Virus record (IMG/VR): IMGVR_UViG_3300023174_000057
Location: 64,001 to 128,000 of that record
DNA: 64,000 nt
Strand: one strand, 5' to 3'
DNA from: a virus
The notes under the pieces are model-generated. The model was not told the origin of the DNA. It was given only the letters and a program-made list of their open reading frames with translations, and made no database searches. Each line of letters opens with the position of its first letter. Positions within the stretch are counted from its first letter, which is position 1. Of this stretch, positions 337 through 64,000 are shown in pieces. The position numbers were made by a program, and so were the translations under genes.

Positions 337-792
337 ATGTCCAACGATCTTCGTTCCAAGGTTATCCGTCTGGCACACCAGAACCCGGCCCTTCGCCCAC
401 ACCTTCTGCCCCTCCTCAAGGGTGGTAACAAGGTCGCATCCGCCGAGAGCGACTTCATCGACGGGTACATCGAAGGTCTGTTGCATACGTCCGACGACGA
501 GGATGGTCGGCCTCTCAACCGCAGCTACAACGCCCGTGACCTTGACTCTGCATCTCTCCACAACATTCAGCAGCGGTGTCGGAAGTTCCTGTCCATGCCG
601 GGTGTCGAGGAACTGATTGATGGTCGCGAGGAAGAAGCCGGGACAGACTTCTGGCTCACTCACAACGGCCACGGGGCTGGGTTCTGGGACGGGGATTGGG
701 AGGATGACGCCGGGAAGATCCTCACGGCTGCTTCCAAGAAGTTTTCCGAGAGCTACGTCTACGTTGAAGACGGATCAGTCTTCGTAGACTGA
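337..792 (+). CDS. Phage protein with N-terminal LRSKVIRLAHQNPALRPHLLPLL tag and DFWLTHNGHGAGFWD motif
   Basis: ORF; alternative in-frame ATG at 322; shared leader; GxDFWLTxNGHGxGFWD motif recalled from phage hypothetical proteins. Confidence 0.75.
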   Translation: MSNDLRSKVIRLAHQNPALRPHLLPLLKGGNKVASAESDFIDGYIEGLLHTSDDEDGRPLNRSYNARDLDSASLHNIQQRCRKFLSMPGVEELIDGREEEAGTDFWLTHNGHGAGFWDGDWEDDAGKILTAASKKFSESYVYVEDGSVFVD

Positions 793-816
793 CACTCTGC
801 GGGCGTAATAGCCCGC

Positions 817-1290
817 ATGAGCCCCGAAGCTATCGTCATCGCCATCCTCGCCCTGTTCCCCCACATGAGCGGGAACAACCGCCGCTGCATCGAGACGCAG
901 CAAGACCGCATCGTCCAACAGCTTCGTGAGGTATCCCAGCCCTACGAGCCCGGTGCGCCTGTCCCCCCGGTGGAGCTCACCGCTGCCGTTGCCTTCGCGG
1001 AGACGCACCTTGGGTGCGACATCCACGAAGGGGGCAACTGGGGTGCGCCCATCGACCCGCAGCACCGTCACACCGCCGGGACGCATATGCACGCCGTTCG
1101 TGCCCTCTCCCGCGGCTACCAGCAGTGCGGGGATTGGGACGGGGCCATCATGCGGTTCCGCACCGGGCTGTGTAACCCCCGGCGCAGCCCGTCGGAGCGG
1201 GTCCGCCAGCAGGGGGCGCACTACCTACGGGTGATCCACCGCATCGTGGAGCGGGTTCGTCGGCACGCCGAAGAAGTACACGGCGAATGA
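817..1290 (+). CDS. Possible lytic transglycosylase/lysozyme-fold protein with hydrophobic N-terminus
   Basis: AAVAFAET (candidate catalytic Glu after a helix); C-terminal AIMRFRTG...YLRVI resembles SLT motif III; preceded by GGGCGTAA motif. Confidence 0.4.
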   Translation: MSPEAIVIAILALFPHMSGNNRRCIETQQDRIVQQLREVSQPYEPGAPVPPVELTAAVAFAETHLGCDIHEGGNWGAPIDPQHRHTAGTHMHAVRALSRGYQQCGDWDGAIMRFRTGLCNPRRSPSERVRQQGAHYLRVIHRIVERVRRHAEEVHGE

Positions 1291-1317
1291 TCTGTGAGGA
1301 GAGCGATTGGGAGCCGA

Positions 1318-1476
1318 ATGAAGACGCTTGGCTCCGCCCCCTTCGTGGTGGGCGGGTGGTACGGCTTCGATTCAAGGGCGGGTACCGCCGCCCGTTCGGT
1401 TGGGAACATCCCCTCTGGGCGGGGGAGCGATCTCGGTTTTCGGTGCTCTCTGCCCGCCCGTCCGCCACGGGCGTAA
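1318..1476 (+). CDS. Diverged FGE/CLec variable-region mini-protein (copy 0)
   Basis: GGGAG SD; VVGGW...AARS...PSGRGSDLGFRC matches the downstream cassettes. Confidence 0.6.
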   Translation: MKTLGSAPFVVGGWYGFDSRAGTAARSVGNIPSGRGSDLGFRCSLPARPPRA

Positions 1477-1484
1477 GTACCCGT

Positions 1485-3924: not shown

Positions 3925-3966
3925 CGGTAGGGCACCTATCCCCCACCGGGGGTAGGAGCCCTACCG
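3925..3966 (+). promoter_or_regulatory. Hairpin containing the CTATC-N10-GGTAGG late-promoter-like motif and overlapping the start codon
   Basis: CGGTAGGGC/GCCCTACCG perfect arms; inner CCTATCCCC/GGGGGTAGG. Confidence 0.55.
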
Positions 3967-4472
3967 TGACGTCTCTCCGTTCCAGCGTCATCCGCCTCGC
4001 CCACGCACAACCGGCCCTGCGCCCGCACCTCCTACCCCTCCTCAAGACGGCAGACGACGACGGCGACTACACCGACGAGGAGTACGCCTTCCTCCTGTGG
4101 ACGCGGAAGTACGAGCGCCGACAAGAGGCCGTGCTTCGCAAGTGGGAGGACAAGTACGAGCGGGAACTGAACGCCGTGGGTGACGGGTTGATCGCTGACC
4201 TCGAAGCCCTCAAGGCGCTGGTGCGCTTCTGGTTCTGGCAGCGCAAGGGCAACTACCGGGACACCCCCGGCGAGGAGGCCCCCAACTTCAAGGGGGCCGT
4301 GGACGCGATGTTCCACCGCCGCCGCAAGGCCCTTGTGGAAGTGAAGGACATCACGGATCGCATGGTCGCACGGGTCGCGGCGATCTCGGGTTCCGCCCTC
4401 TTTGGGGACGACTTCCTTGATGACCTGAACCGATTGGTGTCCGAGTACGAGCGGGAGTTCCAATCCCGGTAG
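3966..4472 (+). CDS. Hypothetical protein with N-terminal LRSSVIRLAHAQPALRPHLLPLLKTA tag
   Basis: Shared leader peptide; AGGAG SD. Confidence 0.75.
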   Translation: MTSLRSSVIRLAHAQPALRPHLLPLLKTADDDGDYTDEEYAFLLWTRKYERRQEAVLRKWEDKYERELNAVGDGLIADLEALKALVRFWFWQRKGNYRDTPGEEAPNFKGAVDAMFHRRRKALVEVKDITDRMVARVAAISGSALFGDDFLDDLNRLVSEYEREFQSR

Positions 4473-5501: not shown

Positions 5502-7334
5502 ATGACTCGACCCGTGACTGCCCTCTTCCAGCCCACCGTCATCCTCCTTGCAGAAATGTCTCTCGTCCCTCAAGGTCTCGATGACCTCGTGGAGTGGGTC
5601 GGGGACTACCGCCCGGAGTGCCTCCCCGGTGAGAGCCCCACGGGCATGGACCTGTTCCCCCACGGTGGTGCGCGCGACGACGGGGGTGTGCTCACGGGCA
5701 ATGAGCTCTTGGTCGAGCTCGCGGGCCGAAATTGTTATGACAAGGAGACCGAGGTACTCACGGAAACTGGGTGGGTGAAGTTCCCGGACCTCCCCCAAGG
5801 TGTGCCCATCGCCACGTACAACCAAGGTACCGGGATGGTCGAGTATCAAGTACCGACGGACTACATCCAGAAGAAGTACACCGGGGCGATGTATCGGGTG
5901 GATTCCCGGTCAGTCTCTCTTCGTGTGACCGAAGACCATGACATCTGGCATGGGGATCGGAGCCGCTGGTGGAGCTTCTCACCGGCTCGCGAGGTGGCTG
6001 GCCATTCCTACAGGCTCCTCCGTACGGCACCCTATGCAGGGGATGGGTTCGTGGAGCCCTTCTGGGAGGTTCCCACTGACAAGTCTCTGGCATGGGCTAC
6101 GTTTCTCGGGTATCTCGTGACCGAGGGTTATGTGTTCGACGGGCGCGGGAGGGGCACTGGATCAAGGGTCACTCTTTTCCAGAAGCCTGCGAAGGCAGGT
6201 CCCATTCTCGCGTGTCTGGCAGAACTGGGTTTCACCCCCCGTGTCCAGACCGATGCGCGGAATGGTGTTCTCCAGATCACTGTGGGGAACACCAAACTCG
6301 CACAGGCACTCCTCCCTTGGGCGGGGGTGCCGTCTCATCACAAGCGTCTCCCCAACCATGTTTTCAACTGGCCGATGGGTGTTCGGGCTGCGCTGGTCAA
6401 CGCCATGATGGCTGGTGATGGGACCGTCACCAATGGGCACCGGGTCTTCTACACGTCTTCACCGGGGCTCGCTGAAGACATGCAGCGCCTCATCACTCTC
6501 TCCGGGAAACCGGGGTCTCTGCACAACGTCCAGAGGGTGCAACGGGAGACCGGGTTCTCGTCGCGTCACCCGAGCTACACTGTTCGGGAGTGTGGACGGA
6601 ACGAAGTCACCATCAACAAGCACGGTGTGGCCCATGACGGGTGGGAGGAGACATCAGATGAGGATGTCTACTGCGTGACGGTGCCCAATCGAACCCTTCT
6701 CGTCCGCCGTGACCGGAAGGTGGTGGTGTGTGCAAATTGCTACCACTCCTACGGGGCCAAGGCGGGCAAGAAGTCCAACGCCCAGTACATCGCCCACACC
6801 CAGAGCGGGGCCGTCCCGCACCGCTCGATCATGTACCACGCCAAGATGACCTTCTTCGTCGGCGGCATCTCTCGGCGGGTCAGTCACGAGCTCATCCGCC
6901 ACTACGTCGGCGCGGACAGGTCCGAGGAAGGTTCACCGTCGCAGGAGTCCACCCGGTACACTCACCACCCGGGGCACTTCGTCGTCCCCCCGAAGATGGC
7001 CGAGGACGGTAACGCCGTGGAGCAGTTCATGGCGTCGATGAGCTCCGCGTACACCGCGTACCACGAGTACATCGAGCGGGAGGTCGAAGCCTATCGTGCG
7101 GCATCGGGCGAGGAGCCCAAGGGGCTGTCCCGCAAGCGCATCTATGAGGCGGCGGCGGGGTTGCTCCCGATGCAAGCTGCCACGTCCCTCGTCTGGACGG
7201 CGAACCCGGTGAGCCTCGCGAAGATGTTTTTGGAGCGTACGGACGAGAGCTCCGACGCGGAGTTCCGGCGTCTCGCCCTGCACTGGCAGAAGTTGTGTGT
7301 CGCCCGGTGGCCCAATCTGTTTCCGAGGGCGTAA
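5502..7334 (+). CDS. thyX: Flavin-dependent thymidylate synthase ThyX with intein
   Basis: Splicing restores AGRN|CYHSY; HRSIMYH, ISRRVSHELIRH, SQESTRY motifs. Confidence 0.9.
   Translation: MTRPVTALFQPTVILLAEMSLVPQGLDDLVEWVGDYRPECLPGESPTGMDLFPHGGARDDGGVLTGNELLVELAGRNCYDKETEVLTETGWVKFPDLPQGVPIATYNQGTGMVEYQVPTDYIQKKYTGAMYRVDSRSVSLRVTEDHDIWHGDRSRWWSFSPAREVAGHSYRLLRTAPYAGDGFVEPFWEVPTDKSLAWATFLGYLVTEGYVFDGRGRGTGSRVTLFQKPAKAGPILACLAELGFTPRVQTDARNGVLQITVGNTKLAQALLPWAGVPSHHKRLPNHVFNWPMGVRAALVNAMMAGDGTVTNGHRVFYTSSPGLAEDMQRLITLSGKPGSLHNVQRVQRETGFSSRHPSYTVRECGRNEVTINKHGVAHDGWEETSDEDVYCVTVPNRTLLVRRDRKVVVCANCYHSYGAKAGKKSNAQYIAHTQSGAVPHRSIMYHAKMTFFVGGISRRVSHELIRHYVGADRSEEGSPSQESTRYTHHPGHFVVPPKMAEDGNAVEQFMASMSSAYTAYHEYIEREVEAYRAASGEEPKGLSRKRIYEAAAGLLPMQAATSLVWTANPVSLAKMFLERTDESSDAEFRRLALHWQKLCVARWPNLFPRA
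5733..6737 (+). mobile_element. Intein (335 aa) with LAGLIDADG homing endonuclease in ThyX
   Basis: CYDKETEVLT block A; VTEDH block B; LGYLVTEG and NAMMAGDG; VYCVTVPN...VVCAN|C end. Confidence 0.9.
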
Positions 7335-19361: not shown

Positions 19362-22300
19362 ATGACTCTCGGCAACCTCGTCCTCTCTGGTGCCCGCGCC
19401 GTCGCCCCCGTGGGCAAAGTCCCGATCACGGCGAACATCATCGAGTTCGTCGAGGAGCCGTGGGGGCTGGGGATGCAGTTGTTCCCGATCCAGAAGATCA
19501 TCCTCAAAGCTCACTACGGCCTCCCGCTGGACGACACGCAGACCTTCACGGTGACTGATTGGCGGCGGCAGAACGCTCGCCAGATGACCGAGAAGGAGTA
19601 CCTCGCCTACCTGTACAGCGAGGGACGGTCGAACATCAAAGAGGTGGTGCCGGGGCACGAGCGCCGGGAGATGATTCTTTCCATCGGTCGCCGCAGCGGA
19701 AAGTGCGTGACGGGGGACACCCTCGTCCTCACCGACCGAGGCATTTACCCCATTGTAGAACTGGGCGACCCCAACGGTCCCGAGGTGCAGCCCCTCGCGG
19801 TGAGGGTGGCTCAAGAGGGCGGGGCGTCATCCACCTCTCGGTACTTCTACAACGGGGGCACGAAGCCCACCTACCGGATCACGTCTCACACGGGCGTGTC
19901 CGTGGAGGGTACGGGCAACCACCGGGTGAGGGTGCTGACTCCCGAGGGGGTCATTGACTGGAAGCACTTGGCGGACATCTGTCCGGGTGACGTTCTGGCA
20001 GTCCACCGTTCTACGAACCTCTGGGCTTCCGACCTCGTGGACGTGCGGGCACACCACGTCCGCGCTGTGCGCCGAGGGGCTGTTGTTCAGCCCGACACGT
20101 TCGACGAGCAGTGGGGACTTCTCATGGGCTACTTGGTGGGGGACGGCTCGTGGACCAACCGCACGTCCCTCGCCATTACCGTCGAGCACCCCGAGACCCG
20201 CACCGAGGTCGAGTCCCTCTTTACCGAACTCTGCGGGAAGTGCTCGTTCACGCACGACAAGCGCACGGCCCGCACGGGTGCCGTGAGGGTGTCTGACAAA
20301 GCCCTTCGGGAGTTCATGCACCGTCTGGGTTTCGACTGGGGCTGCGGGTCCCACACCAAGAGAACTCCGTGGGTGGTGCTGCGCTCCCCACGTCCCGTCG
20401 TTCGTGCCTACCTCCAAGGGCTCTTTGAGACGGATGGCACGGTCACGTCGGGCGGGATGTCGGTCTCGTTCTGTTCCGCCTCCCGTGATCTCGCCCGCGA
20501 GACACAGGTGCTCCTGCTCAACTTCGGGGTGGTGTCCCGCCTGCGGGTGAAGCACAACCGCAAGCTGAACCGGGACTACTACGAGGTCACGATCCGAGGG
20601 CTGCGGTCTCGACGCACCTTCGCCCGCGAGATTGGGTTCCGTTCCCGCAAGAAGCAGGAGCCCTTGGAAGCCGGGTTGGTGGCTCCCGTCCGTGAGGGCG
20701 GTGATACCGAGTCCGTGCCGCACCAGACGGGGTGGGTCGCACGACTGTTGGCGTCCATTCCCAAGGCGTTCCCCGGCAAGGGTTGGCAGCGCAGCACTCT
20801 CCGGGCGATTCTCGGCAATGTATGCAAGCCGGGAAGCCGTGAGGACCTCACATACAGCCGCATCCGTGCGTTCATCCCTGTCGCGGAGGGTTTAGGCGCG
20901 GATTCCGTGGTACTGGACCACTTCCGCGAACTGTTGCGGACGGACTACTTCTTTGACCCCGTGGTGTCCGTCACGCCCGGTGAGGCACGGGTCTACGACC
21001 TCAACGTGCCCGAGGGTGAGAGCTTCGTTGCCAACGGGCTGACCAACCACAACACGACCCTGTCAGCGTGCATTGCCGCGTTTGAGGCATACAAGCTCAT
21101 TTCCAAGGGCGACCCGCAAGCGTACTACGGGCTCCCTCAGAGCAACATGATCCAACTGATCTCGGTCGCCACCGACAAAGATCAAGCGGGTCTGCTCTAC
21201 CAAGAGGTGTCCGGGCACTTCCGTAACTGCGCGTTCTTCGGCCCGTACACCGCGAACAACACGATGAGCTATGCGCGGTTCCAGACGCCCAAGGACGTGG
21301 AGCGGTACGGGGCCTACTCGGACGACCCCAGTGCGAAGGCCACTATCAAGGTCACCTTCCGTAGCTGTGTGGCGAAGGGGCTTCGTGGCGCGGGCAACAT
21401 CGTGGTCATTCTCGACGAGGTGGCGCACTTCACCGACGCGGGGCAGTCTTCCGCCGACGCGGTGTACAACGCCGTCGTCCCCAGCACGTCCGCGTACTCA
21501 CCAAAAGACCCCCTTGATCGTCGCAAGCCCATCGGACAGGTAGAGGGCCGGATCATCTTGATCTCCAGCCCCCTTGGCCGTCAGGGGTTGTTCTACAAGA
21601 TGTTCCAGATCGGCATGGGCGGCGGCATGGCGGCGAGCAATATGCTGTGCATCCAAGCGCCGACGTGGGAGGTGAACCCCACGGTCCCCGCCCACGAGTT
21701 TGAGAAGCACTACCTCAAGGACCAAGCGGTCTTCTTCACGGAGTACGGCGGGGAGTTCAGCGACCGCACCCGTGGGTGGATCGAGCGCGGCGAGGACCTC
21801 GTGGCGTGCGTCAATAAAGACGCTCGACCCCAGCAGCGTGGCATCCCTCGCACCCCGTATTTTCTGGGGCTCGACCTTGGGTTGGTGGGTGACGGCACGG
21901 CAGTGTCCATCGGGCATCTCGATCCCGAGGGGCACATCGTGGTGGACCTCGTGGACCAGATCAAAGCGGGCGTGGGGAAGTACCACACCAAAGAGCGCCT
22001 CGACTTCGACGACGTGGCCGATTGGATTCTGGATCTGTCCAAGCGGTTCTACATACAGGAGGGGATGTTCGACCAGTGGGCGGGCATCCCGCTGGAGCAA
22101 GCCCTCTCCAAGCGCGGGCTGGGCCAGATGAAGGCCCAGCAGATGACGAAACAACTCACGTCCCAGATGTTTCAGAACTTCAAGGACATGATGTGGGACA
22201 AGAAGCTCGTCCTGTACGACCACCCCATCGCGCAGAACGAAACCCACTGCCCGTACATCGCGGAGCTCCTTGAGCTACAGGCCCAGTACCACAGCAAGTT

Positions 22301-22559
22301 CGTGACGACCGTCGAAGCGCCCAACATCGACGGGAAGCACGATGACATGAGCGACGCTCTCGTCCGCATGGTGTGGCTGGCATCGAACCGTCTCTCCAAG
22401 AGCGCCCACCTCTCCGGGGCACAGCGCCAGCACGGCCCGGTAATCCCCGGATACGCCCGCATGGCTATGCGCGCAAAGCTGCTCCAGAGTGGGTCTCACG
22501 AGTCCCGACAGGTCCCTCGCCACGGCGCAGGAGGGGTGAAGCGATGGGTGTCCCGGTGA
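19362..22559 (+). CDS. terL: Terminase large subunit with intein
   Basis: LFPIQKIIL; Walker A GRRSGK|TT after splicing; Walker B VVILDEVAH; ISSP coupling motif; nuclease LGLDLG...HDDMSDA. Confidence 0.92.
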   Translation: MTLGNLVLSGARAVAPVGKVPITANIIEFVEEPWGLGMQLFPIQKIILKAHYGLPLDDTQTFTVTDWRRQNARQMTEKEYLAYLYSEGRSNIKEVVPGHERREMILSIGRRSGKCVTGDTLVLTDRGIYPIVELGDPNGPEVQPLAVRVAQEGGASSTSRYFYNGGTKPTYRITSHTGVSVEGTGNHRVRVLTPEGVIDWKHLADICPGDVLAVHRSTNLWASDLVDVRAHHVRAVRRGAVVQPDTFDEQWGLLMGYLVGDGSWTNRTSLAITVEHPETRTEVESLFTELCGKCSFTHDKRTARTGAVRVSDKALREFMHRLGFDWGCGSHTKRTPWVVLRSPRPVVRAYLQGLFETDGTVTSGGMSVSFCSASRDLARETQVLLLNFGVVSRLRVKHNRKLNRDYYEVTIRGLRSRRTFAREIGFRSRKKQEPLEAGLVAPVREGGDTESVPHQTGWVARLLASIPKAFPGKGWQRSTLRAILGNVCKPGSREDLTYSRIRAFIPVAEGLGADSVVLDHFRELLRTDYFFDPVVSVTPGEARVYDLNVPEGESFVANGLTNHNTTLSACIAAFEAYKLISKGDPQAYYGLPQSNMIQLISVATDKDQAGLLYQEVSGHFRNCAFFGPYTANNTMSYARFQTPKDVERYGAYSDDPSAKATIKVTFRSCVAKGLRGAGNIVVILDEVAHFTDAGQSSADAVYNAVVPSTSAYSPKDPLDRRKPIGQVEGRIILISSPLGRQGLFYKMFQIGMGGGMAASNMLCIQAPTWEVNPTVPAHEFEKHYLKDQAVFFTEYGGEFSDRTRGWIERGEDLVACVNKDARPQQRGIPRTPYFLGLDLGLVGDGTAVSIGHLDPEGHIVVDLVDQIKAGVGKYHTKERLDFDDVADWILDLSKRFYIQEGMFDQWAGIPLEQALSKRGLGQMKAQQMTKQLTSQMFQNFKDMMWDKKLVLYDHPIAQNETHCPYIAELLELQAQYHSKFVTTVEAPNIDGKHDDMSDALVRMVWLASNRLSKSAHLSGAQRQHGPVIPGYARMAMRAKLLQSGSHESRQVPRHGAGGVKRWVSR
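19704..21053 (+). mobile_element. Intein (450 aa) with LAGLIDADG endonuclease inserted in terminase Walker A
   Basis: CVTGDTLVLT...GTGNH...MGYLVGDG...LQGLFETDG...VYDLNVPEGESFVANGLTNHN|T. Confidence 0.93.
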
Positions 22560-24842: not shown

Positions 24843-25271
24843 GTGGAGCACTCCACCATGAACCGCCGTCGCGCCGACGAGAAGCCCTCCCTCCTCCCGA
24901 TCATGCACCCCCTCTTCAACATGAGGGAGGTGTGCAAGCAGACCGCCCTGTTGGAGGATCACCTCAACAACGAGCGGAAGCGGTGCATGGACTGCATCCG
25001 CAAGCACTTCCTGACCATCGAGGCCCTGCTGGAGGAGGCTGTCAGCCTCGACAACAAGGCCAAGTGGGCCGACCTACTGGACGGCAAGGTGGAGCTCGTG
25101 CGGGAGTGCCAAGAGCGGTGGGTTGACGGTGAGGAGCCCTGTGACATCGCCCAAGATCTCCGGGCGATCCGCAAGGAGCTCACCCCCAAGTGCTTCGACC
25201 TCCGTGAGATGACGCAGGAGTCCCGCCTCGCGAGCCGTGTGGCTTCTCGGTTCCTCCGTAGGGTGGCCTGA
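24843..25271 (+). CDS. Hypothetical protein with C-terminal RVASRFL tag
   Basis: LLEDHL...RCMDCIRKH; start GTG 24843 or ATG 24858. Confidence 0.7.
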   Translation: MEHSTMNRRRADEKPSLLPIMHPLFNMREVCKQTALLEDHLNNERKRCMDCIRKHFLTIEALLEEAVSLDNKAKWADLLDGKVELVRECQERWVDGEEPCDIAQDLRAIRKELTPKCFDLREMTQESRLASRVASRFLRRVA

Positions 25272-25272
25272 G

Positions 25273-25815
25273 ATGATCACCAAGCTCGCGATCTACGACT
25301 TCGACGGGACGCTGTTCCGCAGTCCCGAGAAGCCCGATGGTTGGACCGCCGGGTGGTGGGGTAACCTCGCGTCCCTCACGCCGCCCATCGTGCCTGAGAC
25401 CCCCGGCGCGGATTGGTGGAACGGGAGCGTGGTCCAGCGGGCGAAGAGGGACATCAGTGACGGGGACACCATCGCGGTGCTGGTCACCGGGAGGCTCGCC
25501 AAGAAGTTCACCGCTCGCGTGAAGGACTTGCTGGCCCACGCGGGTCTGAAGTTCAACCACGTCTACCTCGCCAGCGGTGGTGACACCGAGTCCTACAAGC
25601 TCCGGGTGATCGGTGACCTCCTCAAGGAGTACCCGACGATCACGGGCGTGGACATCTGGGAGGACCGTGCCCCTCACCTCCAGAAGTTTGCGGACTTCGT
25701 GGAGTCGCAGGGCAAGGCAGCGTTCCCGCACCTCATCACGGTGACCCCCCATGAGCCCGAAGGGCTTCCGAGCCCCGAAAAGGTCGCGAGTCGGTACCTG
25801 ACCCGGAGGCAGTGA
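25273..25815 (+). CDS. HAD-superfamily phosphatase (Swiss-Army-Knife RNA-repair-like) with C-terminal KVASRYL tag
   Basis: IYDFDGTLFRSP motif I, LVTGR motif II, K, IWEDR motif IV. Confidence 0.8.
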   Translation: MITKLAIYDFDGTLFRSPEKPDGWTAGWWGNLASLTPPIVPETPGADWWNGSVVQRAKRDISDGDTIAVLVTGRLAKKFTARVKDLLAHAGLKFNHVYLASGGDTESYKLRVIGDLLKEYPTITGVDIWEDRAPHLQKFADFVESQGKAAFPHLITVTPHEPEGLPSPEKVASRYLTRRQ

Positions 25816-29558: not shown

Positions 29559-29641
29559 TGGGTGCATCCCGCCGGGAGCCCCTTGTTTCGTACCACAGCG
29601 CCCACGGTGACCCCGGCGGGACCAGAAGGAGACCCCCTCTC

Positions 29642-52579: not shown

Positions 52580-52645
52580 ACCGTTCGTAGGCAGCGGGGT
52601 ATTGACTCCTCGAATCAGAGCCCCCGCCCTCAACGAAAAGTATGG

Positions 52646-52681
52646 TATCGGGGTTGACTTCCCCGATACGGGGCTTACGAT
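52646..52681 (+). promoter_or_regulatory. Sigma70-type promoter with inverted repeat around the -35
   Basis: TATCGGGG-TTGACTT-CCCCGATA; TTGACT-N16-TACGAT; ATG 7 nt downstream. Confidence 0.55.
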
Positions 52682-52688
52682 TCGGGTC

Positions 52689-54170
52689 ATGGAAGACCGA
52701 CCCGAAGCCCCGTGCCCCGCCTGTAAACAATCCGTTCCCCTCAAGGGCCTCGCGAAGCACGCCTCGGGGTGTTCGCAATGGGGCACGCTAGGCGTGCCCG
52801 CGCTCCAGTTCAACTGGGACAGGTACTTCAAGCGCGGCGTCTACGCGGACGGGTTGACGGAGGGCACCGACTACGTTCGGTGCCTAGAGTGCCCGGACGG
52901 GGCGCGGGGAGACCGGGGCCTTCGCTTGATGGATCACGTCAAGAAGGTCCACGGCTTGACGAAAGAGGCGTACATCGAACGGCATCCGGGGGCTCTTCTC
53001 AACGTCCCCGGCACCCTAGAGCGCCGCAAGGCTACAGTATCGGAGCGGTACGACGGGGCGACCAACGTGTTCCAAGTGCCCGACGTGAAGGATCGCATTC
53101 GGGACGTGATGGCCGAGAAGTACGGGGGCATGGGGGTGGGTTCCCCAGAGCTCCGAGCGAGGGTTGAGCAGACGAACGAGGTCCGGTATGGGAGTGCCAA
53201 CCCGTTCGGGTCTGACAAGGTGCAGGAGAAGATTCGGGCGACGTGGCGGGAGAAGTACCAGTGCGACAACCCCAACCAGTCTCCAGAGATCATGGCGAAG
53301 CGTATTGCCACGAACCGCAAGACGCACGGCGCGGATCACTACGTCGAGACCGCCGAGTTCAAGGGGAAGTTCAAGGCGGCGAGCCAAGAGCGGTTCAAGG
53401 CGGACCATCCGATGCAATCGAAAGAGGGGCGCGAGTTGTGGGGTGCCGGATGCGTCGAGAAGCTGGGAGTAGATAACCCTCTCAAAGACCCGGACATCTA
53501 TCAGAAGTCCTACGAGTCCAACCTCACCAACCACGGCGGGAAGCACTCGCAGCAGTGCCCGGAGGTGCTGGAGAAGGCACGGGCGACGTGGCGGGAGAAG
53601 TACAACACGGACAACCCGTCGAAGGTCGAAGCTGTCAAGCAGAAGATCAAGGACGTGTGGGAGGGGAAGTACGGGGTTCCGTTTCCGCCGCAGAGCTTGT
53701 GGCTGAACCAGACGCACTCGTCTCCCAACGGGCTGGAGCGGAAGGTTCAAGCGATGCTGCCCGTGTACGTCCTCTACACGGGTGACAAGACGTACAACGT
53801 GCGGTTGCCCGGTACGGCACGGGACAAGTACCCGGACTTCGTGGTGCTGGCCCCGGATCAGTTGCAAGCCTACCAGTCGGGGACGCCCTTGAAGTCCCTT
53901 CGGATTGAAGCCGCCATCGAGGCGTTTGGTTCGTACTGGCACGGCCCGGAGATGACCGGGGTATCTCGCGAGGACCACTACAACGGGGTCATGGATTACT
54001 ACGCCCGGTGCGGCCTTCGGTGTCTGATCCTGTGGGAGCACGACGTGGACAAGCGACCGGGCGAGGTGGCCGACCGGCTTCGGCGGTTCCTATCCGACGT
54101 GGCGGGGTCTGTAACCCATTCGGGCGTCGGGGCCGACCCGTCTGTTCTGGATTTTTTCCGAGGAGCTTGA
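52689..54170 (+). CDS. Homing-endonuclease-like protein: zinc fingers, multiple T..EKYG..NP repeats, C-terminal PD-(D/E)XK/Vsr-like nuclease
   Basis: YVRCLEC..DHVKKVHGL; ATWREKY..DNP repeats; YPDFVV...IEAFGSYWHG...CLILWE. Confidence 0.78.
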   Translation: MEDRPEAPCPACKQSVPLKGLAKHASGCSQWGTLGVPALQFNWDRYFKRGVYADGLTEGTDYVRCLECPDGARGDRGLRLMDHVKKVHGLTKEAYIERHPGALLNVPGTLERRKATVSERYDGATNVFQVPDVKDRIRDVMAEKYGGMGVGSPELRARVEQTNEVRYGSANPFGSDKVQEKIRATWREKYQCDNPNQSPEIMAKRIATNRKTHGADHYVETAEFKGKFKAASQERFKADHPMQSKEGRELWGAGCVEKLGVDNPLKDPDIYQKSYESNLTNHGGKHSQQCPEVLEKARATWREKYNTDNPSKVEAVKQKIKDVWEGKYGVPFPPQSLWLNQTHSSPNGLERKVQAMLPVYVLYTGDKTYNVRLPGTARDKYPDFVVLAPDQLQAYQSGTPLKSLRIEAAIEAFGSYWHGPEMTGVSREDHYNGVMDYYARCGLRCLILWEHDVDKRPGEVADRLRRFLSDVAGSVTHSGVGADPSVLDFFRGA

Positions 54171-56185: not shown

Positions 56186-56530
56186 TCAGAGCGAGGAGTC
56201 CTCGTCGGGGTCGTAGGGGCGCATCGGGAACGTCACCACGGCATCGGTGCCCCGGACAGAGAACATGGGGAGTCCGTCGATCTGGTAGTTCTCCATGTCG
56301 AGCGCCTCCGTCAGTCGCCTCTCAAAGGAGTACCGCTTGGCTTCCATGACGGTTCGCTCCAGATCCCTCGCGGTTCCCGTCCAGTTCGGGAAGGTGAAGG
56401 TGAGGGCCGTGGGCGTGTAGGTCACTTCTGGGGTCCCCTTCAACCCGTGGTCGGCCATGAACTTTTTGGCTACCACAGAGACAGTCGCCGGGACGCTCAG
56501 GGCTCGTTTGATCAGTGTTGCGATGGTCAT
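56186..56530 (-). CDS. Hypothetical protein
   Basis: GGAGG SD; TGATG coupling with the upstream gene. Confidence 0.65.
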   Translation of the reverse strand: MTIATLIKRALSVPATVSVVAKKFMADHGLKGTPEVTYTPTALTFTFPNWTGTARDLERTVMEAKRYSFERRLTEALDMENYQIDGLPMFSVRGTDAVVTFPMRPYDPDEDSSL

Positions 56531-56844
56531 CACGTCCTCCCGACGATGGCCTTCTTCATGGCGTCGTTCCACTCGCCCCAGATGGCGTCTCGGGAATCCG
56601 AGTCGGTGGTCCCGTAGTCGGAGTTCTTGGCAATCAGCCGCCCGATGGCCTGATAGGCGCTCGCCACGTTCACAGCGGTCATCGCGATCTCGGCTTGGAT
56701 CTGCTCCGTGACCTCCTCGTGACCTTCGTAGAGGCTGTAGGGGTTGTCGTCCATCGCCGTCTTGGTGACCAGCGGGAGGAGTTGGGCGCGGAGTTCCGGG
56801 CGTTGGTGGGCCAGACGGATGATTTTGGAACGGAGGTCGCTCAT
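56530..56844 (-). CDS. Hypothetical protein with N-terminal LRSKIIRLAHQRPELRAQLLPLVTKTA tag
   Basis: Shared leader; ATG 13 nt after CTATC. Confidence 0.75.
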   Translation of the reverse strand: MSDLRSKIIRLAHQRPELRAQLLPLVTKTAMDDNPYSLYEGHEEVTEQIQAEIAMTAVNVASAYQAIGRLIAKNSDYGTTDSDSRDAIWGEWNDAMKKAIVGRT

Positions 56845-56908
56845 GTCCTGTGCCGTGGATAGGGAAGCTACCGTGACGGTGGCTTCTCTATCCACGGCAC
56901 AGGGCATG
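56842..56908. promoter_or_regulatory. 67-bp palindrome: divergent back-to-back promoter-like motifs ending in two start codons
   Basis: 33-bp arms with 3 mismatches and a 1-nt centre; CTATCCACGGCACAGGRCATG on both strands. Confidence 0.75.
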
Positions 56909-58033
56909 ACCCCTTGTGCTGTCCGTGTCGCCACCCGGTACCTCTCGGCCAAAGTGTGGGGCGACCCCTCGGGGATGATCTCCGACTACCGGGGGGCGCT
57001 CACAGCCTTCCAGACGGGCCTCACCCGGGTCACCGAGTCCGCCACACAAACTTTCAGCCGCTACACTCCCTCGACCCCACGAGAGCAGGAGATGGTACAG
57101 AAGGCGGTGGCGAAGGCGACCCGTGGCGCTCTCTCTCACACGATGGTCCCGCTTATCCAGACGGCACGTCAGTTGTCCGAGTGGGTGCTCCAGACCCGTG
57201 TGATCCCCGCTGGCAAGGCCAAGGCGGTCGAGATGGCGGCACGCTCCGTTCAGAGCATGGCGCGGCTCCCGCAGGACATCCCCGATTGGTACGAGAAGAA
57301 CGCTGCCCGTCTCAATCTCCTGCTGGAGGCGGCGTCGTGGCCAGAGAAGTCGGGGGAGGGGGATGCCGCGTCACAGGTGGTGACCGTGGGGCCGTTCAAG
57401 GTCCACAACACCATCGGCGCGGACGCGAAGCAGTTCAAGGAGATCCAAGGGCTCGTCGAGAACGCGACTCGCGCTTTGTCCACCACGTTGGACTTCAAGA
57501 AAGTTCTCTACGGAGACGTGTACGTCGTCGGGCAACTGCGGCAGTCCCACACCCTCGCTTGGTACAAGATTCAGTCGGACGACGTGTACGTTCGGTCCCT
57601 CGCCAAGAAGGGCGGGGACGATCTTCACTCTCTCGTCCACGAGCTCGGGCACCGCTACTGGTTCAAGTCCGCCACGAGCGACCAGAAGCGGAACATCAAC
57701 ATGCTCTTCATGGACCTCGGGACGGCACCCGCGCCGTCCGTGACACGTCCCACGGTCGGTGACGAGCTCCCTGTGTCCGTGAAGGGTGCCAAAGGCACCA
57801 AGTTCATCATCGTGAAGGACGACGGGATGTACTTCACGACGGAGCCCAAGGGCACCTTCCCTGTCCGTGAGGTCATGCGGCTCATCACCGAGAGGGCCAA
57901 GGGCACGGAGACTTTTCCCTCGCAGTACTCGATGACGGACAGTTCAGAGTTCTTTGCGGAGTGCTTCGCGTTCTACACCCTCGGGCGTCTCAAGCCCGAC
58001 CTCGCCAAGAGGTTTGAGGAGGCTCTGTCGTGA
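56906..58033 (+). CDS. Zincin metallopeptidase-domain protein with N-terminal RVATRYL tag
   Basis: LVHELGHRYW and SQYSMTDSSEFFAECF (HExxH plus downstream E..AE). Confidence 0.78.
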   Translation: MTPCAVRVATRYLSAKVWGDPSGMISDYRGALTAFQTGLTRVTESATQTFSRYTPSTPREQEMVQKAVAKATRGALSHTMVPLIQTARQLSEWVLQTRVIPAGKAKAVEMAARSVQSMARLPQDIPDWYEKNAARLNLLLEAASWPEKSGEGDAASQVVTVGPFKVHNTIGADAKQFKEIQGLVENATRALSTTLDFKKVLYGDVYVVGQLRQSHTLAWYKIQSDDVYVRSLAKKGGDDLHSLVHELGHRYWFKSATSDQKRNINMLFMDLGTAPAPSVTRPTVGDELPVSVKGAKGTKFIIVKDDGMYFTTEPKGTFPVREVMRLITERAKGTETFPSQYSMTDSSEFFAECFAFYTLGRLKPDLAKRFEEALS

Positions 58034-58883: not shown

Positions 58884-59390
58884 ATGGCTGACCGCGCCTT
58901 GCTCGTTGGGGTCAACACCCCGGTGCCCCGCTCAACGGGTGCGTCTGATGGTCGCCCTGTCCTGTACTTCGGCTACGGGTCGAACTTGAACGTGCCCATG
59001 ATGATGGGGCGCGTGCCGCACGCCAAGCTCCTCGTCCCTGCGTTTCTCCCCTACCATCGCGTCGGGTTCGCGGGGCACAGTCGTCATTGGGGCGGCGGAA
59101 CGGCGACACTCATCCCAGCGATGAGTGTCGTGCCCGGTGTCCTGTACCTGATGACCCGTGACGACCTTCACGAGCTCGACAGGTCTGAGAACACCCCCAC
59201 GGGCAACCACCGCCACAACGAGTACGTCTACGGCTGGGACGGCACCCGTTACGAGGCGTTCATGTACCGACAGGGGTCGGGCACCCCGGTCAACCCCCCC
59301 GACCCTCGCTATCTCTCGACCGTCATCGAGGGGCGTAGGATGCACGGATTTCGTTACGAAGACATCCTACGAGAGGCACGACGCACATGA
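58884..59390 (+). CDS. Gamma-glutamylcyclotransferase (GGCT/AIG2-like)
   Basis: [10 protein letters not shown]...VPGVLYLM...LDRSE...PDPRYL. Confidence 0.82.
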
Positions 59391-59992
59391 CCCCCGGCAC
59401 CCACAAGCTCCCGCCCCTGCCCTACGCCTACGATGCCCTTGAGCCGTGGATGGGCGCGGAGACGGCGCGGCTGCACCACGGCAAACACCACCAATCTTAC
59501 GTTGACGGGCTGAACGAAGCTGAAGTCGAGCTCGCCAAGGCGCGGGCGTCGGGCGACATCAAGCTCGTCCCGTACTGGCAGACCCGGCGAGCGTTCAATG
59601 AGGGCGGGCACGTTCTGCACTCGATCTTCTGGCATTGTATGTCGCCCGACGGCGGCGGGCTTCCCACGGGCAACCTAGCCACCCTGATTGACCGGGACTT
59701 CGGCGGGTACAAGGCGTTCCGCCGTGAGTTCGTCGCCACGGCCAAGGGCGTCGAGGGGTCGGGCTGGGCGGTTCTCGTACTCAAGCGCGGGATGCGCGGT
59801 GGACGCCTAGAGGTGGCACCCGTTCACAATCACGAGAACCGTGCCCTGTGGCAGTCACAGGTGCTGCTCCCGATGGACGTGTGGGAGCACGCCTACTACC
59901 TCGACCACCAGAACGACCGGGAGGGCTGGGCCAACACCTTCCTCGATCACTTGGTCGATTGGTCCTACATCGAATCAAGGGTAAAAGCATGA
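59387..59992 (+). CDS. sod: Fe/Mn superoxide dismutase
   Basis: LPPLPYAYDALEP, HHGKHHQSYV, GGHVLHSIFW, GSGW, DVWEHAYY. Confidence 0.95.
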   Translation: MTPGTHKLPPLPYAYDALEPWMGAETARLHHGKHHQSYVDGLNEAEVELAKARASGDIKLVPYWQTRRAFNEGGHVLHSIFWHCMSPDGGGLPTGNLATLIDRDFGGYKAFRREFVATAKGVEGSGWAVLVLKRGMRGGRLEVAPVHNHENRALWQSQVLLPMDVWEHAYYLDHQNDREGWANTFLDHLVDWSYIESRVKA

Positions 59993-60699
59993 GCACTCTT
60001 CGTTCTAAGGTCATTCGTCTGGCGCACCAGAACCCCGCCCTCCGTCCGCACCTTCTGCCCCTCCTTCGAGAGAAGCGCGCAGCGGGGCAATGGAGGGAGG
60101 TGTCCCCTCGGGGATTGTCTCAAGAGACCCTAGATAGGGTCTGGGACATGTACAAAAACAGCTACGCCAAGATCGGTCTCAAGGTCTCGTCCATCGGTGA
60201 GATGGTGTCCGAGTATGATGCTTGGCGTCTGGCTTACGATGGAGAGGTGCCCGTAGCCTTTAGCGTGGGGACCAAGACCTCGTTCGGCGTCAAGAGCGGT
60301 CTCTCTGGATCGGATGGGACGCCAGCGGGAAAGGACTCGATCAAGAGCCTCCTTTCTACCATCTACAAGCAGCCGGGTTTCTATTCGGAGGTGTCGCACG
60401 CCGTCGAGCACATCGCGGCTAAAGCGGGAGCCCCGGCAGTTTGCGCGGTCTACGTTCCCAACATCATTAAGAAGCAGATCGAGCCCGCTGACGACGGCAT
60501 TCACTACTCCAGAATTTTGGGGGGTGTGGGCAAGGTCACCAAAATTCTCGTCGGTCGTCCGAGAGGTATTCCTACGACGGACTACGACCATCCCGTTTGC
60601 CCCATCGGGGACCCATCTCTTCGCACCTCTGGAGAGGTAGAGCCCGACGATTCTGCGGACTACGCCGCCCACATCGCGTGCCTTCTCTTTCAAGGCTGA
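59989..60699 (+). CDS. Hypothetical protein with N-terminal LRSKVIRLAHQNPALRPHLLPLL tag
   Basis: ATGA overlap with sod; more AT-rich codon usage. Confidence 0.75.
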   Translation: MSTLRSKVIRLAHQNPALRPHLLPLLREKRAAGQWREVSPRGLSQETLDRVWDMYKNSYAKIGLKVSSIGEMVSEYDAWRLAYDGEVPVAFSVGTKTSFGVKSGLSGSDGTPAGKDSIKSLLSTIYKQPGFYSEVSHAVEHIAAKAGAPAVCAVYVPNIIKKQIEPADDGIHYSRILGGVGKVTKILVGRPRGIPTTDYDHPVCPIGDPSLRTSGEVEPDDSADYAAHIACLLFQG

Positions 60700-61074: not shown

Positions 61075-61199
61075 AGGAACTGTTCACCCTCCCTTCGGTG
61101 AAGCGCGAGCCCGTACCGGCGACGGTGCTGGACGTGCTCCGCGACGGCGGCGGGGAGCCTTCCGCCCGGAGGGTTGCCTCCCGATTTCTGGGGCGGTGA
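61071..61199 (+). CDS. 42-aa peptide ending in the RVASRFL tag
   Basis: ATGA overlap; MKELFTLPSVKREPVPATVLDVLRDGGGEPSARRVASRFLGR; below ORF-track cutoff. Confidence 0.55.
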   Translation: MKELFTLPSVKREPVPATVLDVLRDGGGEPSARRVASRFLGR

Positions 61200-61233
61200 C
61201 CCCCTCCGGGCGTAATAGCCCCCGGAGGCCACA

Positions 61234-63702
61234 ATGGCAACGAAGTCAAAGACCCAGACCAACATCACCAAGTTCGCTCTCCGTAACTTCAAGGGCACCC
61301 CCACCCGCTACTTCCGCTGCGAGGCGGAAGACATCACCGCGAAGGCGACCGTCGAGGTTCGCAAGCCTTCGCACCACATCCTCGTGATCGACCGTTCGGG
61401 CTCGATGTACGGGGACATCGGGGACGTGAAGGGCACCGTCGAGAAGCTCCTCACCCTCTCCGAGTTCCGCGATCCGACGCTGAAGGTGTCCCTCATCTCC
61501 TACTCGTCGCAGGGCGACGTGAAGCTGCACTTCAGCAAGGTGACGGTGGAGGACGTGATGCGGGCGGGCTCCCCGTACCTCGGTGAGATCCGCAGCATTC
61601 ACGCCACGGCCCTCACCTGCATCTCGCAGGGCCTCGCGATGGCAGAGACCATCGTGGACGATGCCGATACGACGTGCGTGACGCTTCACACGGACGGTTT
61701 CGCCAACGACCGGAGCCCCACGGCGGAGGCCCGCGACATCAAGGCAGCGGTCGCGAAGCTCAAGACGCACCCCAACCTGTTCGCGAACGCCATCGGGTAC
61801 CGGGACTACTGCGACTACAACCTGCTGGCGAGCATCAGCAACTCCCTCTCGGGCGTGTGCGTGCAAGCCAAGGGCATCAAGGCCGTGTACGAAGCGGTCT
61901 ACAACACCACGAAGCTCCTCGCGGGCACCCTGTCCCCCGCCATCGAGGTGTCTCGTGGCAAGGCCGACTACGCCATGTTCGTGTCCCGCAGCGCCCGCAA
62001 GGTGCTGGGGATGACTGACACCTTCACGGTGCAGGGGCTCTCGCCCACGGACGACAAGACGGCGTACCGCCTGTTTGAGATCACGGCCAAGGACTACGCC
62101 GACCTCGACGCTCCCGTGAGCGGCGAGAACGCCCCGGTGGAGCCTGTCCTCGCCTTCGCCCGGACGCAGATCTCGGCGGGCAACCTCAACGCGGCCAAGT
62201 ACGCCCTCGTGTCCACCCGGTGCGGCGAGCTCCTCGGGAAGCACTCACGCGCCCTCGTGGCGAGTGACATCGCGGCGATGGCTGACGGCACGGAGGGGTA
62301 CCTGTTCGACCGCGTCCCGTTCACCCCGTCGAACGGCTACGGGCTCGGTGCCACGGGGCCTTCGGTGCTCACGGTGCTCACCTACCTCAACGGGCACACG
62401 GACACCCTCTCGGTGGACCTCCCGACCTTCTCGTCGGGCTACAAGCGGCGCGGGGTCAAGCGCATCCCCGGCACGCGCCTCGCGGACGGCACGGTGGAGG
62501 AGCCCACGGTGTCCTCCAAGGTGCGCGAGGGCGGGGACGGATGGGTGAAGGTCAACAGCTTCGACCTCAACCGCAACACGGCCAGCATCAATATGCTGGT
62601 GAGCCAGCCCATCGACCTGTTCCCGAAGGGGTCGTCCCAGCGGGTGGCGAGCGTGGCGGGGGTGTCCCTCGACGATCTCAAGAGCTTCAACAACTACACG
62701 GTGGTGGGCGACGGGATGCTCAACGCCTCGTCTCTGCCCCTCCGCACGTCGGATCAGAAGGTGATCGTCGGGCTCGCTTCCCTCGGGCTCCACCTCGCCA
62801 ATGCCAAGGCGGGCCAGCCCTTCACGCTCGACCTGTCGGGCCTCCCGCTGGTGGACTACGACCTCAACGTGGGCGGGGTGGACCACACCACGGTGACGCG
62901 CCTCGCGCGCCTCACGGTGCTGTCCAAGATCCTCAACGGCATGGTGAAGGGCGACGCGAGCGGTCTCACCTCGGAGCAGGTGGACGAGCTCAAGAAGCAC
63001 TACCTCACCCCGTCGATGTACTTTTCGCCGCCCACCACCACGGAGTACGCGGTTCTCGCGGACGCCATCGCCACGGGCAAGGTGGACACCAAGCTGTCCT
63101 ACAAGGTGGACCTCGGGACGCCCGACATCACGGGCACGGGCAAGCTCAAGAGCGGCAACGAGTACCTCCAGCGGCGCTTCACGCTCACCTTCATGGGCAA
63201 GGACGTGGAGAAGCCGACGCTGGACTACATCACCCTCACGGACTCGACGTGGGGCATCAAGAAGCTGTCGGCGCGGACGACCCTCGACGCTGTGGACGAG
63301 CTCTCCTACCCGATCTACGAAGGGATGCTCGGGCTGGGCGACGGCAAGGTGCTGAAGGATCTTCTGAAGGGCGTGGGGTGCGTGGACCCGGACCGTTTCC
63401 TCGCGGACCTCAAGGGAGTGAACGCCTCGGAGGCCGTGCGAGAGGCCATCCGGTTCGTGGAAGCAGCCATCGAGGCCGTGTATGAGACGGTTCGCCCGCT
63501 GGCGTTCTACGTCGGCGCGACGGGGCTGGTGCCCGACTCCCTCGGGGCCAAGGCGATGACCGCTGAGGAGTTCGCCACGGCGTACCCCAACGCCAAGCTC
63601 TCCAAGGCCGAGAAGGAGGAGGGCAGCTTCCACGTCCTGCCTGACAACACGGTGCTGACCGTGTACGTCAAGGGCGAGTTGTTCAGCCCCTCGGCCCACT
63701 GA
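61234..63702 (+). CDS. von Willebrand factor A (MIDAS) domain protein
   Basis: LVIDRSGSM, ALTCISQGL, LHTDG; GGAGG SD. Confidence 0.82.
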   Translation: MATKSKTQTNITKFALRNFKGTPTRYFRCEAEDITAKATVEVRKPSHHILVIDRSGSMYGDIGDVKGTVEKLLTLSEFRDPTLKVSLISYSSQGDVKLHFSKVTVEDVMRAGSPYLGEIRSIHATALTCISQGLAMAETIVDDADTTCVTLHTDGFANDRSPTAEARDIKAAVAKLKTHPNLFANAIGYRDYCDYNLLASISNSLSGVCVQAKGIKAVYEAVYNTTKLLAGTLSPAIEVSRGKADYAMFVSRSARKVLGMTDTFTVQGLSPTDDKTAYRLFEITAKDYADLDAPVSGENAPVEPVLAFARTQISAGNLNAAKYALVSTRCGELLGKHSRALVASDIAAMADGTEGYLFDRVPFTPSNGYGLGATGPSVLTVLTYLNGHTDTLSVDLPTFSSGYKRRGVKRIPGTRLADGTVEEPTVSSKVREGGDGWVKVNSFDLNRNTASINMLVSQPIDLFPKGSSQRVASVAGVSLDDLKSFNNYTVVGDGMLNASSLPLRTSDQKVIVGLASLGLHLANAKAGQPFTLDLSGLPLVDYDLNVGGVDHTTVTRLARLTVLSKILNGMVKGDASGLTSEQVDELKKHYLTPSMYFSPPTTTEYAVLADAIATGKVDTKLSYKVDLGTPDITGTGKLKSGNEYLQRRFTLTFMGKDVEKPTLDYITLTDSTWGIKKLSARTTLDAVDELSYPIYEGMLGLGDGKVLKDLLKGVGCVDPDRFLADLKGVNASEAVREAIRFVEAAIEAVYETVRPLAFYVGATGLVPDSLGAKAMTAEEFATAYPNAKLSKAEKEEGSFHVLPDNTVLTVYVKGELFSPSAH

Positions 63703-63739
63703 CCCCTCTCGGTAGCCCCTTTATCCCCGCGAAGGGTGT

Positions 63740-64000
63740 ATGGGCACCCTTCGCACCTCCCTCATCCGGCTGGCTCATCAGAACCCCAGCCTCCGTCCTC
63801 ATCTTCTCCCCATCCTCAAGACGGCCCGGAACTCGTTTGAGTTCCTCCTGTCCGTAGGGGTGAATCACGACATGGCGGATGCCGTGCGGATGGACCGGGG
63901 CGGGTCCACCGAGAGCAACGCCGACGAGAGCTACGTCGAGCTCGTCCAGTACTCCCACCATGGGATCAAGAACTTCTTGGACGGCGAGCGGGTAGGACGC
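63740..64000 (+). CDS. Protein with N-terminal LRTSLIRLAHQNPSLRPHLLPILKTA tag (3' truncated by window)
   Basis: Open to the window end; ATG 14 nt after TTATC; not in the ORF track. Confidence 0.75.
   Translation, partial: MGTLRTSLIRLAHQNPSLRPHLLPILKTARNSFEFLLSVGVNHDMADAVRMDRGGSTESNADESYVELVQYSHHGIKNFLDGERVGR

Follow-up and report, generated by a model that had tools for sequence, protein, structure and literature searches.

A portable peptide tag on unrelated proteins of an uncultivated phage lineage and its possible role in loading the phage head

A peptide of about 27 residues recurs on otherwise unrelated proteins of an uncultivated phage represented by a 166,764-bp virus record (IMG/VR record IMGVR_UViG_3300023174_000057, 64.5% G+C). 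We analyzed bases 64001-128000 of this record, a stretch of 64,000 nucleotides referred to here as the window, and followed the peptide through the whole genome and into related contigs. The peptide, referred to below as the tag, is very probably a portable protein-docking label of some kind. That this label loads its carriers into the phage head for injection is the explanation with the most support, and in our judgment it is evenly poised between true and false. A modular head-loading signal had been proposed when the window was read without database searches (the sequence-only reading). The modular label held up, and it has several links to the head: a single lineage of the major capsid protein (MCP), a motif shared with a scaffold-position protein, effector cargo, exchange with a second motif called RVA, and gene position. 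Encapsidation and injection themselves we infer.

A profile hidden Markov model (HMM) built from the genome's 15 tag copies was run on the six-frame translation of the whole genome. This search returned exactly 15 matches at E<=1e-15, the next match having an E of ~1. The sequence-only reading had counted five N-terminal copies in the window; all five were found where it placed them, but the count was too low for the genome, in which 13 of the 15 copies are N-terminal (M-x-x-LR...) and two are internal, in a 402-aa open reading frame (ORF) at genome position 5914 and a 432-aa ORF at genome position 36401. The tags in the window begin 2-4 residues past the start codons of the ORFs at 337, 3966, 56844(-), 59989 and 63740, as follows:

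349-417, plus strand: tag copy 1 (23-aa core), residues 5-27 of ORF 337-792 (151 aa), the body of which belongs to the phrog_1915 family
3975-4043, plus strand: tag copy 2, residues 4-26 of ORF 3966-4472 (168 aa), with KTA directly after
56767-56835, minus strand: tag copy 3, residues 4-26 of ORF 56530-56844(-) (104 aa), the most diverged copy, with 6/23 differences
59998-60066, plus strand: tag copy 4, residues 4-26 of ORF 59989-60699 (236 aa), with a GNAT-fold acetyltransferase body
63749-63817, plus strand: tag copy 5, residues 4-26 of ORF 63740-64213 (157 aa), which extends beyond the window end

The consensus of the tag is M-x-x-LR-x-x-x-IRLAH-x-x-P-x-LR-x-x-LLPLL-K-x-A, with 11 invariant columns (L, R, IRLAH, P, R, L, P). 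Only the first ~27 residues of the tagged proteins can be aligned. The bodies behind the tags show no mutual alignment and are assigned to different PHROG families, in agreement with the earlier description of these bodies as unrelated.

The family to which the body of the window-337 protein belongs provides a view of how the tag is distributed over homologues of one cargo. We detected 75 homologues, 5 of which are tagged and 32 of which start directly with the body, the rest having other extensions. Because so few of the homologues are tagged and so many begin with the body, the tag is an add-on specific to this phage lineage. Together with the 15 unrelated bodies, this result supports the earlier proposal of a modular tag found on newly acquired genes. 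The tagged GNAT gene (59989) starts 4 nt before the stop codon of the upstream ORF 59387-59992, the product of which we take, by eye, to be like an Fe/Mn superoxide dismutase. Tagged proteins are mostly 90-450 aa in length and have no more than one recognizable domain; a few are giant, P0002 (1780 aa) being an example. The domains recognized in the cargo are ART-PolyVal, 2H-SAK, ParB-like nuclease (ParBc_2), RNA ligase, RelA/SpoT, GNAT, WGR, pentapeptide repeats and DUF5710, a repertoire that overlaps that of the polyvalent proteins predicted to be packaged and injected (compared with PMC5512222).

Selection acts on the peptide sequence of the tag. Over the 105 pairs of copies, the differences per site at codon positions 1, 2 and 3 were 0.17, 0.09 and 0.56, this excess at the third position indicating selection at the peptide level, as had been proposed. 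Codon differences per pair were 9.6 synonymous versus 4.7 non-synonymous, and every invariant residue of the tag is encoded by 2-4 different codons. The copies at 349 and 59998, previously singled out for their identical peptides and differing third positions, match at 23/23 residues and at 87% of their DNA; they differ at 9 codons, all of the changes being synonymous. The DNA homology among copies runs from a promoter-like element 12-37 nt upstream of the start codon to the K-x-A codons and ends exactly there. Since both the element and the 5' part of the gene fall within this homology, recombination may be the means by which the cassette spreads, and the same extent of homology is what one would expect if a nucleic-acid element (an mRNA structure, a ribosome-loading site or a recombination site) were conserved rather than the peptide. 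We assign next to no probability to this explanation, as it is contradicted by the codon-position pattern and by the varied codons of the invariant residues. The peptide also occurs at internal and C-terminal positions, and the synonymous scatter excludes a conserved RNA pairing across copies.

The promoter-like element, CG[GT]T-N7-YTAT, is present in about 30 genome copies located about 12-40 nt upstream of start codons, a distance that implies very short leaders. Its spacing is not sigma-70-like. About 12 of the copies lie upstream of tagged genes, and the rest are found in front of the post-portal gene, the gene of the scaffold-position protein and a number of large ORFs. The copies listed for the window are:

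294-308, plus strand: promoter-like element, 29 nt before ORF 337
3925-3939, plus strand: promoter-like element, 27 nt before ORF 3966
24815: promoter-like element, among the listed copies
29526-29540: promoter-like element, before the scaffold-position gene 29558-30265
56859-56873, minus strand: promoter-like element, 15 nt before ORF 56844(-)
56877-56891, plus strand: promoter-like element, back-to-back with 56859-56873(-) and facing an RVA-labelled protein with a HELGH motif
63710-63724, plus strand: promoter-like element, 16 nt before ORF 63740

Two pairs of elements are back-to-back and divergent, one in the window at 56859(-)/56877(+) and one at genome positions 135266(-)/135279(+). The sequence-only reading had noted a CTAT-type motif in front of four of the five window genes and associated it with the structural block. 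The motif is indeed upstream of 337, 3966, 56844(-) and 63740, with none at 59989, but it does not characterize the core structural genes. A role for the element as the late promoter of those genes was ruled out because the genes for the large terminase (terL), portal, protease and MCP all lack it.

AlphaFold2 models the tag as a pair of helices separated at the conserved proline, with predicted local distance difference test (pLDDT) values of 73-86 in two different proteins, so that the fold is a predicted helix-Pro-helix. In the model of the window-59989 protein, the only segment with a pLDDT below 50 comprises residues 28-31, which correspond to the K-x-A junction, and this segment is followed by a confidently predicted domain with a GNAT-type acetyltransferase fold. 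K-x-A follows all five window tags, as had been described (KTA three times, KVA and KRA), at variable offsets of +1, +1, +2, +3 and +5. Behind N-terminal tags, 56-65% of copies have K at +1 and 47-58% have A at +3. The upstream flank of internal and C-terminal tags reads K(-4)-x-A(-2)-S(-1). K-x-A thus comes after N-terminal tags and before internal or C-terminal tags, which places it on the cargo side in both orientations. An S, T, N or D at -1 of internal and C-terminal tags could equally be a helix cap. The earlier proposal that K-x-A is the maturation cleavage site of the prohead protease is in our estimation somewhat doubtful. It is favored by the cargo-side location and by the disordered segment predicted there, and disfavored by the incomplete conservation and variable offset of the motif and by the occurrence of C-terminal tags, for which cutting after the tag would be pointless.

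The tag is abundant in metagenomic sequence. An exhaustive profile search over 1.84 billion representatives identified 3,372 protein clusters at E<=1e-3, 532 of them at E<=1e-10. At least 87 confirmed tag sites were found in IMG/VR, on many contigs and with several copies per contig, and the carriers are almost exclusively uncultivated phage contigs, the huge ones among them measuring 485, 406, 289 and 252 kb. DNA of the phage analyzed here recurs in freshwater and lake metagenomes of many studies. Among prokaryotes there were only 4 matches in 185,579 species genomes, all on small contigs of metagenome-assembled genomes. The tag region has no significant match in Pfam, NCBIfam, PHROGs or PDB. 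In Pfam there is only a sub-threshold similarity to the N-terminal part of the DUF6193 model (E of 1.5e-4 to 0.15, below the cut-off), and the best match in the PDB profile search, with an E of 1.4, is a designed protein. A known DNA-binding or oligomerisation domain, either of which would have spoken against the head-loading proposal, was looked for in Pfam, NCBIfam and PDB, and none was matched. No earlier description of the tag or of its motif string was found in the literature searched.

Distribution of the tag follows one capsid lineage. The head module of the window encodes the large terminase, the portal, a 1248-aa protein with a topoisomerase IB core, a scaffold-position protein, the prohead protease, an acidic repeat protein and the MCP. 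Those most relevant to the analysis are:

23138-24823, plus strand: portal protein (phrog_16240, E=1.7e-32)
29558-30265, plus strand: scaffold-position protein (236 aa, charged), located between portal and protease and containing the motif EPGPL..P[FY]M[EK]G.FTQ.E
30836-32245, plus strand: head maturation (prohead) protease (469 aa; phrog_18299, E=6e-15)
34757-35638, plus strand: MCP (293 aa, HK97-type with no delta domain; phrog_2522, E=8.6e-48)

The prohead protease matched no Pfam family at E<=0.01. We compared the MCP among tag-bearing records of 57% completeness or more; MCP searches in smaller fragments (8-36% complete) yielded nothing informative. The MCP of every such record shares 84-98% identity, and the neighboring head proteins are 46-77% identical. 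Tags number 11, 10 and 6 per record (15 in the genome analyzed here) and 1 at an MCP identity of 84%; 0 tags were found in a record that is 31% complete and has an MCP of 62% identity. The genomes of records sharing the 84-98% identical MCP range from 167 to 485 kb, so capsids that differ widely in size are apparently assembled from one near-frozen 293-aa MCP. Relatives have small tagged genes inserted immediately behind the portal or MCP gene; in the genome analyzed here the tagged genes are scattered outside the structural block. This distribution bears on the question of whether the tag is instead a timed turnover or folding handle, such as a degron or a chaperone/adaptor site by which a class of proteins is removed or activated together. 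A terminal, exposed and portable peptide on a disordered linker, found at either terminus and on the products of a regulon-like set of genes, has features expected of such a handle. We nevertheless consider this very unlikely because the tag is essentially absent from cellular genomes and tracks the capsid lineage rather than any recognizable protease or chaperone gene, and because the multi-copy tags of scaffold-like proteins would be hard to account for.

Placement of the tag is not confined to the N-terminus. Among 100 non-redundant tagged ORFs of related contigs, the tag is N-terminal in 84, internal in 9 and at the extreme C-terminus in 5, the remaining 2 being tiny ORFs. A 2H-SAK phosphoesterase and a pentapeptide-repeat protein are among those with a C-terminal tag. 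Most of the best-scoring database proteins have 2-5 tags, the commonest architectures in the best 150 being N+internal (56) and N+C (34). These multi-tag proteins look like strings of short linear motifs. The motif GCEKLP[EA]GPMR[DE]NC recurs in 12 of the 150, usually just behind a tag (carriers include P0001, P0006, P0009, P0022, P0041, P0077 and P0112), and a further motif, [SA]RFEEG...MSPEDKKK, is found in 3 of the 150.

The commonness of N+C and multi-copy architectures would be expected if the tag were a self-associating oligomerisation module, with tag-tag bundling into hetero-oligomers and no separate receptor, as would the predicted amphipathic nature of its helix pair. Tags within genomes are also more similar to each other than tags between genomes (0.744 versus 0.694, p~5e-4), a small difference that does not discriminate between models. 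We find self-association quite unlikely. The natural two-tag mini-protein P0110 was predicted by AlphaFold without confident tag-tag packing (predicted template modelling score of 0.29), a result that by itself leaves self-association neither supported nor excluded. A short peptide with three invariant arginines would be better matched to a specific acidic receptor than to a homotypic bundle, and the exchange of the tag for the unrelated-looking RVA motif, described below, would be left unexplained.

A second link to the head is provided by the multi-tag proteins. The lysine/glutamate (K/E)-rich multi-tag proteins P0001 and P0010 share a linear motif with the scaffold-position protein, EPG.L...P[FY]M[EK]G.FT..E..EL..KQ (BLASTP E of 3e-12 and 2e-12). 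The same motif is found in mini-proteins consisting of an N-terminal tag, the motif and a C-terminal tag (P0110, P0138, P0044 and P0077), and charged multi-tag proteins often end in a tag. These proteins are also central to the possibility that the tag docks proteins on a phage-built hub that is not the capsid, such as an intracellular assembly or condensate that the K/E-rich multi-tag proteins organize and that acts as a replication or takeover factory, the head links then being incidental. The many database proteins with 2-5 tags and charged low-complexity linkers have the architecture of a multivalent hub, the tagged genes have a promoter class of their own that is mostly missing from core head genes, and these genes lie scattered outside the structural block. 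On the other hand, the hub-like proteins share their motif with a protein of the head module, the tag can be exchanged for a motif concentrated in head-module proteins, and the tag tracks one MCP lineage. We thus regard a hub with no relation to the capsid as unlikely. As a separate observation, the scaffold-position proteins at 29558-30265 and 32260-33843 contain repeated [LI]A[KG]KSEE units and acidic repeats (ALLASMMAEEHGAGHDADE, x3). The KKSEE of these proteins resembles the K-K-A-S flank of internal tags, and for this reason the KSEE-type units, as judged from their sequence, may be protease sites.

The third link is the RVA motif, RVA[STA]R[YFHS][LVK]. The genome has 11 copies, all in the window, starting at 25236, 25780, 26046, 26985, 27024, 29514, 30599, 40183, 56924, 58048 and 61170. 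Nine of the 11 are in proteins encoded between the portal gene and the p241 gene, where the motif is found at C-termini, N-termini and domain junctions, and it is kept at the same places in the closest relative (L086). Six of the copies form a cluster:

25236-29534, plus strand: cluster of six RVA copies, at the C-termini of the 24843 and 25237 ORFs and at four places in the 1248-aa topoisomerase IB protein

Orthologues of the GNAT cargo encoded at window 59989 can start with either peptide. Of the 16 that could be aligned, 11 have the LRSK tag and 4 have an RVA-type leader at the same position, indicating that on at least one cargo the tag and the RVA motif can replace each other. The RVA motif may serve for cleavage or docking, or may be related to the first helix of the tag as a minimal version of it. 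Outside the window, the ORF at genome 46978-47745(-) starts with MSDLKAQLLRVASTLP, which by eye is intermediate between the first helix of the tag (LRSKIIRLAHQRP) and the RVA motif; this N-terminus is not recognized by the tag HMM. The product of the ORF at 56924-58033, which is divergent from the tagged gene 56844(-), carries the leader RVATRYL at its N-terminus and a HELGH zincin-type motif, and gave no match in Pfam or NCBIfam. The 1248-aa protein (window 25812-29558) has the catalytic core of a type IB topoisomerase at residues 110-310 (Pfam Topoisom_I, E=6e-29), followed by a long K/E/A-rich region, with its four RVA motifs flanking domains. By analogy to the topoisomerase of poxvirus virions, this protein may be a packaged topoisomerase.

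A potential concern with the head-loading interpretation is that several results weigh against it. Neither this phage nor its close relatives have a tag on the scaffold-position protein, and the head-module proteins here bear the RVA motif, not the tag. The neighbors of the one tagged scaffold-motif locus found among relatives (L114) are uninformative. In relatives at 50-60% identity the head modules mostly lack RVA motifs, and a second swap test, performed on the window-58030 family, found an RVA-type or truncated N-terminus in 42/42 homologues and the LRSK tag in none. The absence of the promoter-like element from the core head genes also counts here; the element does suggest co-expression of tagged genes with head assembly, but does no more than suggest it because just two head-module genes share the element. 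About 90% of the cargo is without recognizable function (no recognizable Pfam family in the samples scanned). Lastly, the tag is present in no cultured phage record, the sole tblastn match in the phage records being a 485-kb uncultured record (E=0.03).

If the tag does load the head, the following mechanism can be proposed. The label would consist of two short helices kinked at the invariant proline and joined through a flexible linker to one or the other end of a protein. Exposed in this manner, and with three invariant arginines and a Leu/Ile face, it would dock on a conserved head component during procapsid assembly, candidate partners being the inner face of the near-invariant MCP or the scaffolding core. 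The MCP is the best receptor candidate, because a protein contacted by many partners would be expected to be strongly constrained. Docking would enclose unrelated proteins, many of the kind represented by injected enzymes, within the procapsid, from which they would later leave with the DNA. The exposed K-x-A(-S/A) junction between label and cargo might be cut by the prohead protease, and in some lineages the charged multi-tag proteins might serve as scaffold or adaptor proteins. New genes would gain the label as a cassette, extending from the promoter-like element through the K-x-A codons.

A broader alternative is that the tag and the RVA motif serve as zip codes in a general sorting system used by a freshwater clade of large and huge phages, the receptor being a phage-built internal body made of the K/E-rich multi-tag proteins rather than the capsid wall. 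Dozens of effectors would be concentrated in this body, which could be a cytoplasmic organelle or an inner structure that is then packaged whole. We consider this proposal as a whole improbable; if true, it would represent peptide-addressed sorting machinery of a kind undescribed for any bacterial virus.

Should head loading prove correct, a single 32-column profile would suffice to recognize the injected first-strike proteome of an uncultivated clade of large and huge phages, and the more than 3,000 protein clusters would constitute a sequence-only catalogue of candidate anti-defence and host-takeover proteins. Head loading could also explain why the MCP is near-frozen despite the range of genome sizes. 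It would be an alternative to the use of polyvalent proteins, with many small effectors each being addressed versus one giant fusion, and would furnish a natural short tag, functional at the N- or the C-terminus, with which foreign proteins could be loaded into HK97-fold shells.

Additional observations were made on this phage and its relatives. Several essential genes look interrupted by inteins or homing endonucleases, at 19362-22559, 5502-7334, 35832-37775 and 52602-54170 in the window and in the protease of two relatives (L101 and L102), which matches as two pieces ~1.3 kb apart. In relatives, the two halves of the 1065-aa terminase have separate matches, and the ORFs at 35832 and 52602 match LAGLIDADG and homing-endonuclease PHROGs. 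In the 406-kb record (G003), positions 363779-363880 (L113) encode a 34-residue copy of MCP residues 41-74 at 74% identity, which sits in an unrelated 209-aa frame far from the MCP gene. This fragment was rejected as a tagged protein and is probably a gene remnant. The single C-terminally tagged giant protein of the 406-kb phage (L085) was considered as a counterpart of the topoisomerase IB head protein of the window, and this was rejected because the two have no homology.

Functionally, the tag resembles three known types of signal: the capsid targeting sequence (CTS) of phage T4, the helix-turn-helix of the P22 scaffolding protein, and the targeting peptides of encapsulins and microcompartments. 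The analogies to the T4 CTS and to encapsulins, both raised in the sequence-only reading, hold at the level of function and not of sequence relationship. The CTS is a short conserved N-terminal peptide found on diverse T4 proteins (IPI-III and Alt) that directs them into the prohead scaffolding core, many of the carriers being anti-defence or host-modifying proteins (PMC3012670; PMC5512222), and Alt is a proven example of an effector that is packaged and injected (PMC5512222). Both systems have one short terminal peptide on otherwise unrelated phage proteins (15 here), an ART-type enzyme among the cargo, and an encoded prohead protease. The tag differs from the CTS in being longer (~27 aa, with its predicted helix-Pro-helix fold) and unrelated in sequence, in occurring also at C-terminal and internal positions and in multiple copies, and in being found in thousands of clusters rather than on a handful of proteins. 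For the tag, encapsidation and cleavage are put forward only as possible parallels. The phage also differs from T4 in its HK97-type MCP, which has no homology to T4 head components.

The C-terminal helix-turn-helix of the P22 scaffolding protein is used to load foreign cargo into P22 virus-like particles. It is described as a module of ~30 residues that is essential for coat binding (10.1101/2022.12.13.520362; PMC9962691). The tag is likewise a helix-turn-helix of ~30 residues as predicted by AlphaFold2 in two proteins, and charged proteins with the scaffold-position motif carry C-terminal tags. The PDB profile search found no similarity of the tag to known scaffolding domains, and the module is found on one protein in P22 but on many unrelated proteins here, where the scaffold-position protein of the phage itself is without a tag.

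Encapsulin and microcompartment peptides are short and terminal, are attached by flexible linkers at either end, and address unrelated enzymes into a shell interior, the shell of encapsulins being of the HK97 fold. The shell in the present case differs from an encapsulin in that it is a true phage capsid with terminase, portal and protease; the cargo genes are dispersed and the peptide sequences unrelated.

Polyvalent proteins combine many effector domains in a giant polypeptide anchored by MuF/portal-type domains (Iyer et al. 2017, PMC5512222). They have in common with the tagged proteins the effector domains ART, 2H phosphoesterase, ParB-like DNase, RelA/SpoT and GNAT, and a predicted delivery with the incoming DNA. 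They differ in that 2-15 effector domains are fused, whereas here they are mostly found in separate small proteins, each with its own label. In giant phages of the phiKZ/SPN3US type, N-terminal regions of many head and ejection proteins are reported to be removed by the prohead protease at a short consensus site in the course of maturation (PMC10052503; PMC7411985). Those propeptides are not known to be one conserved portable sequence, and the tag-bearing phages share an unrelated lineage of small MCP. The tag is set apart from these systems by its scale, by its use at either terminus and in multiple copies, by its restriction to one capsid lineage, and by the existence of a second, interchangeable label.

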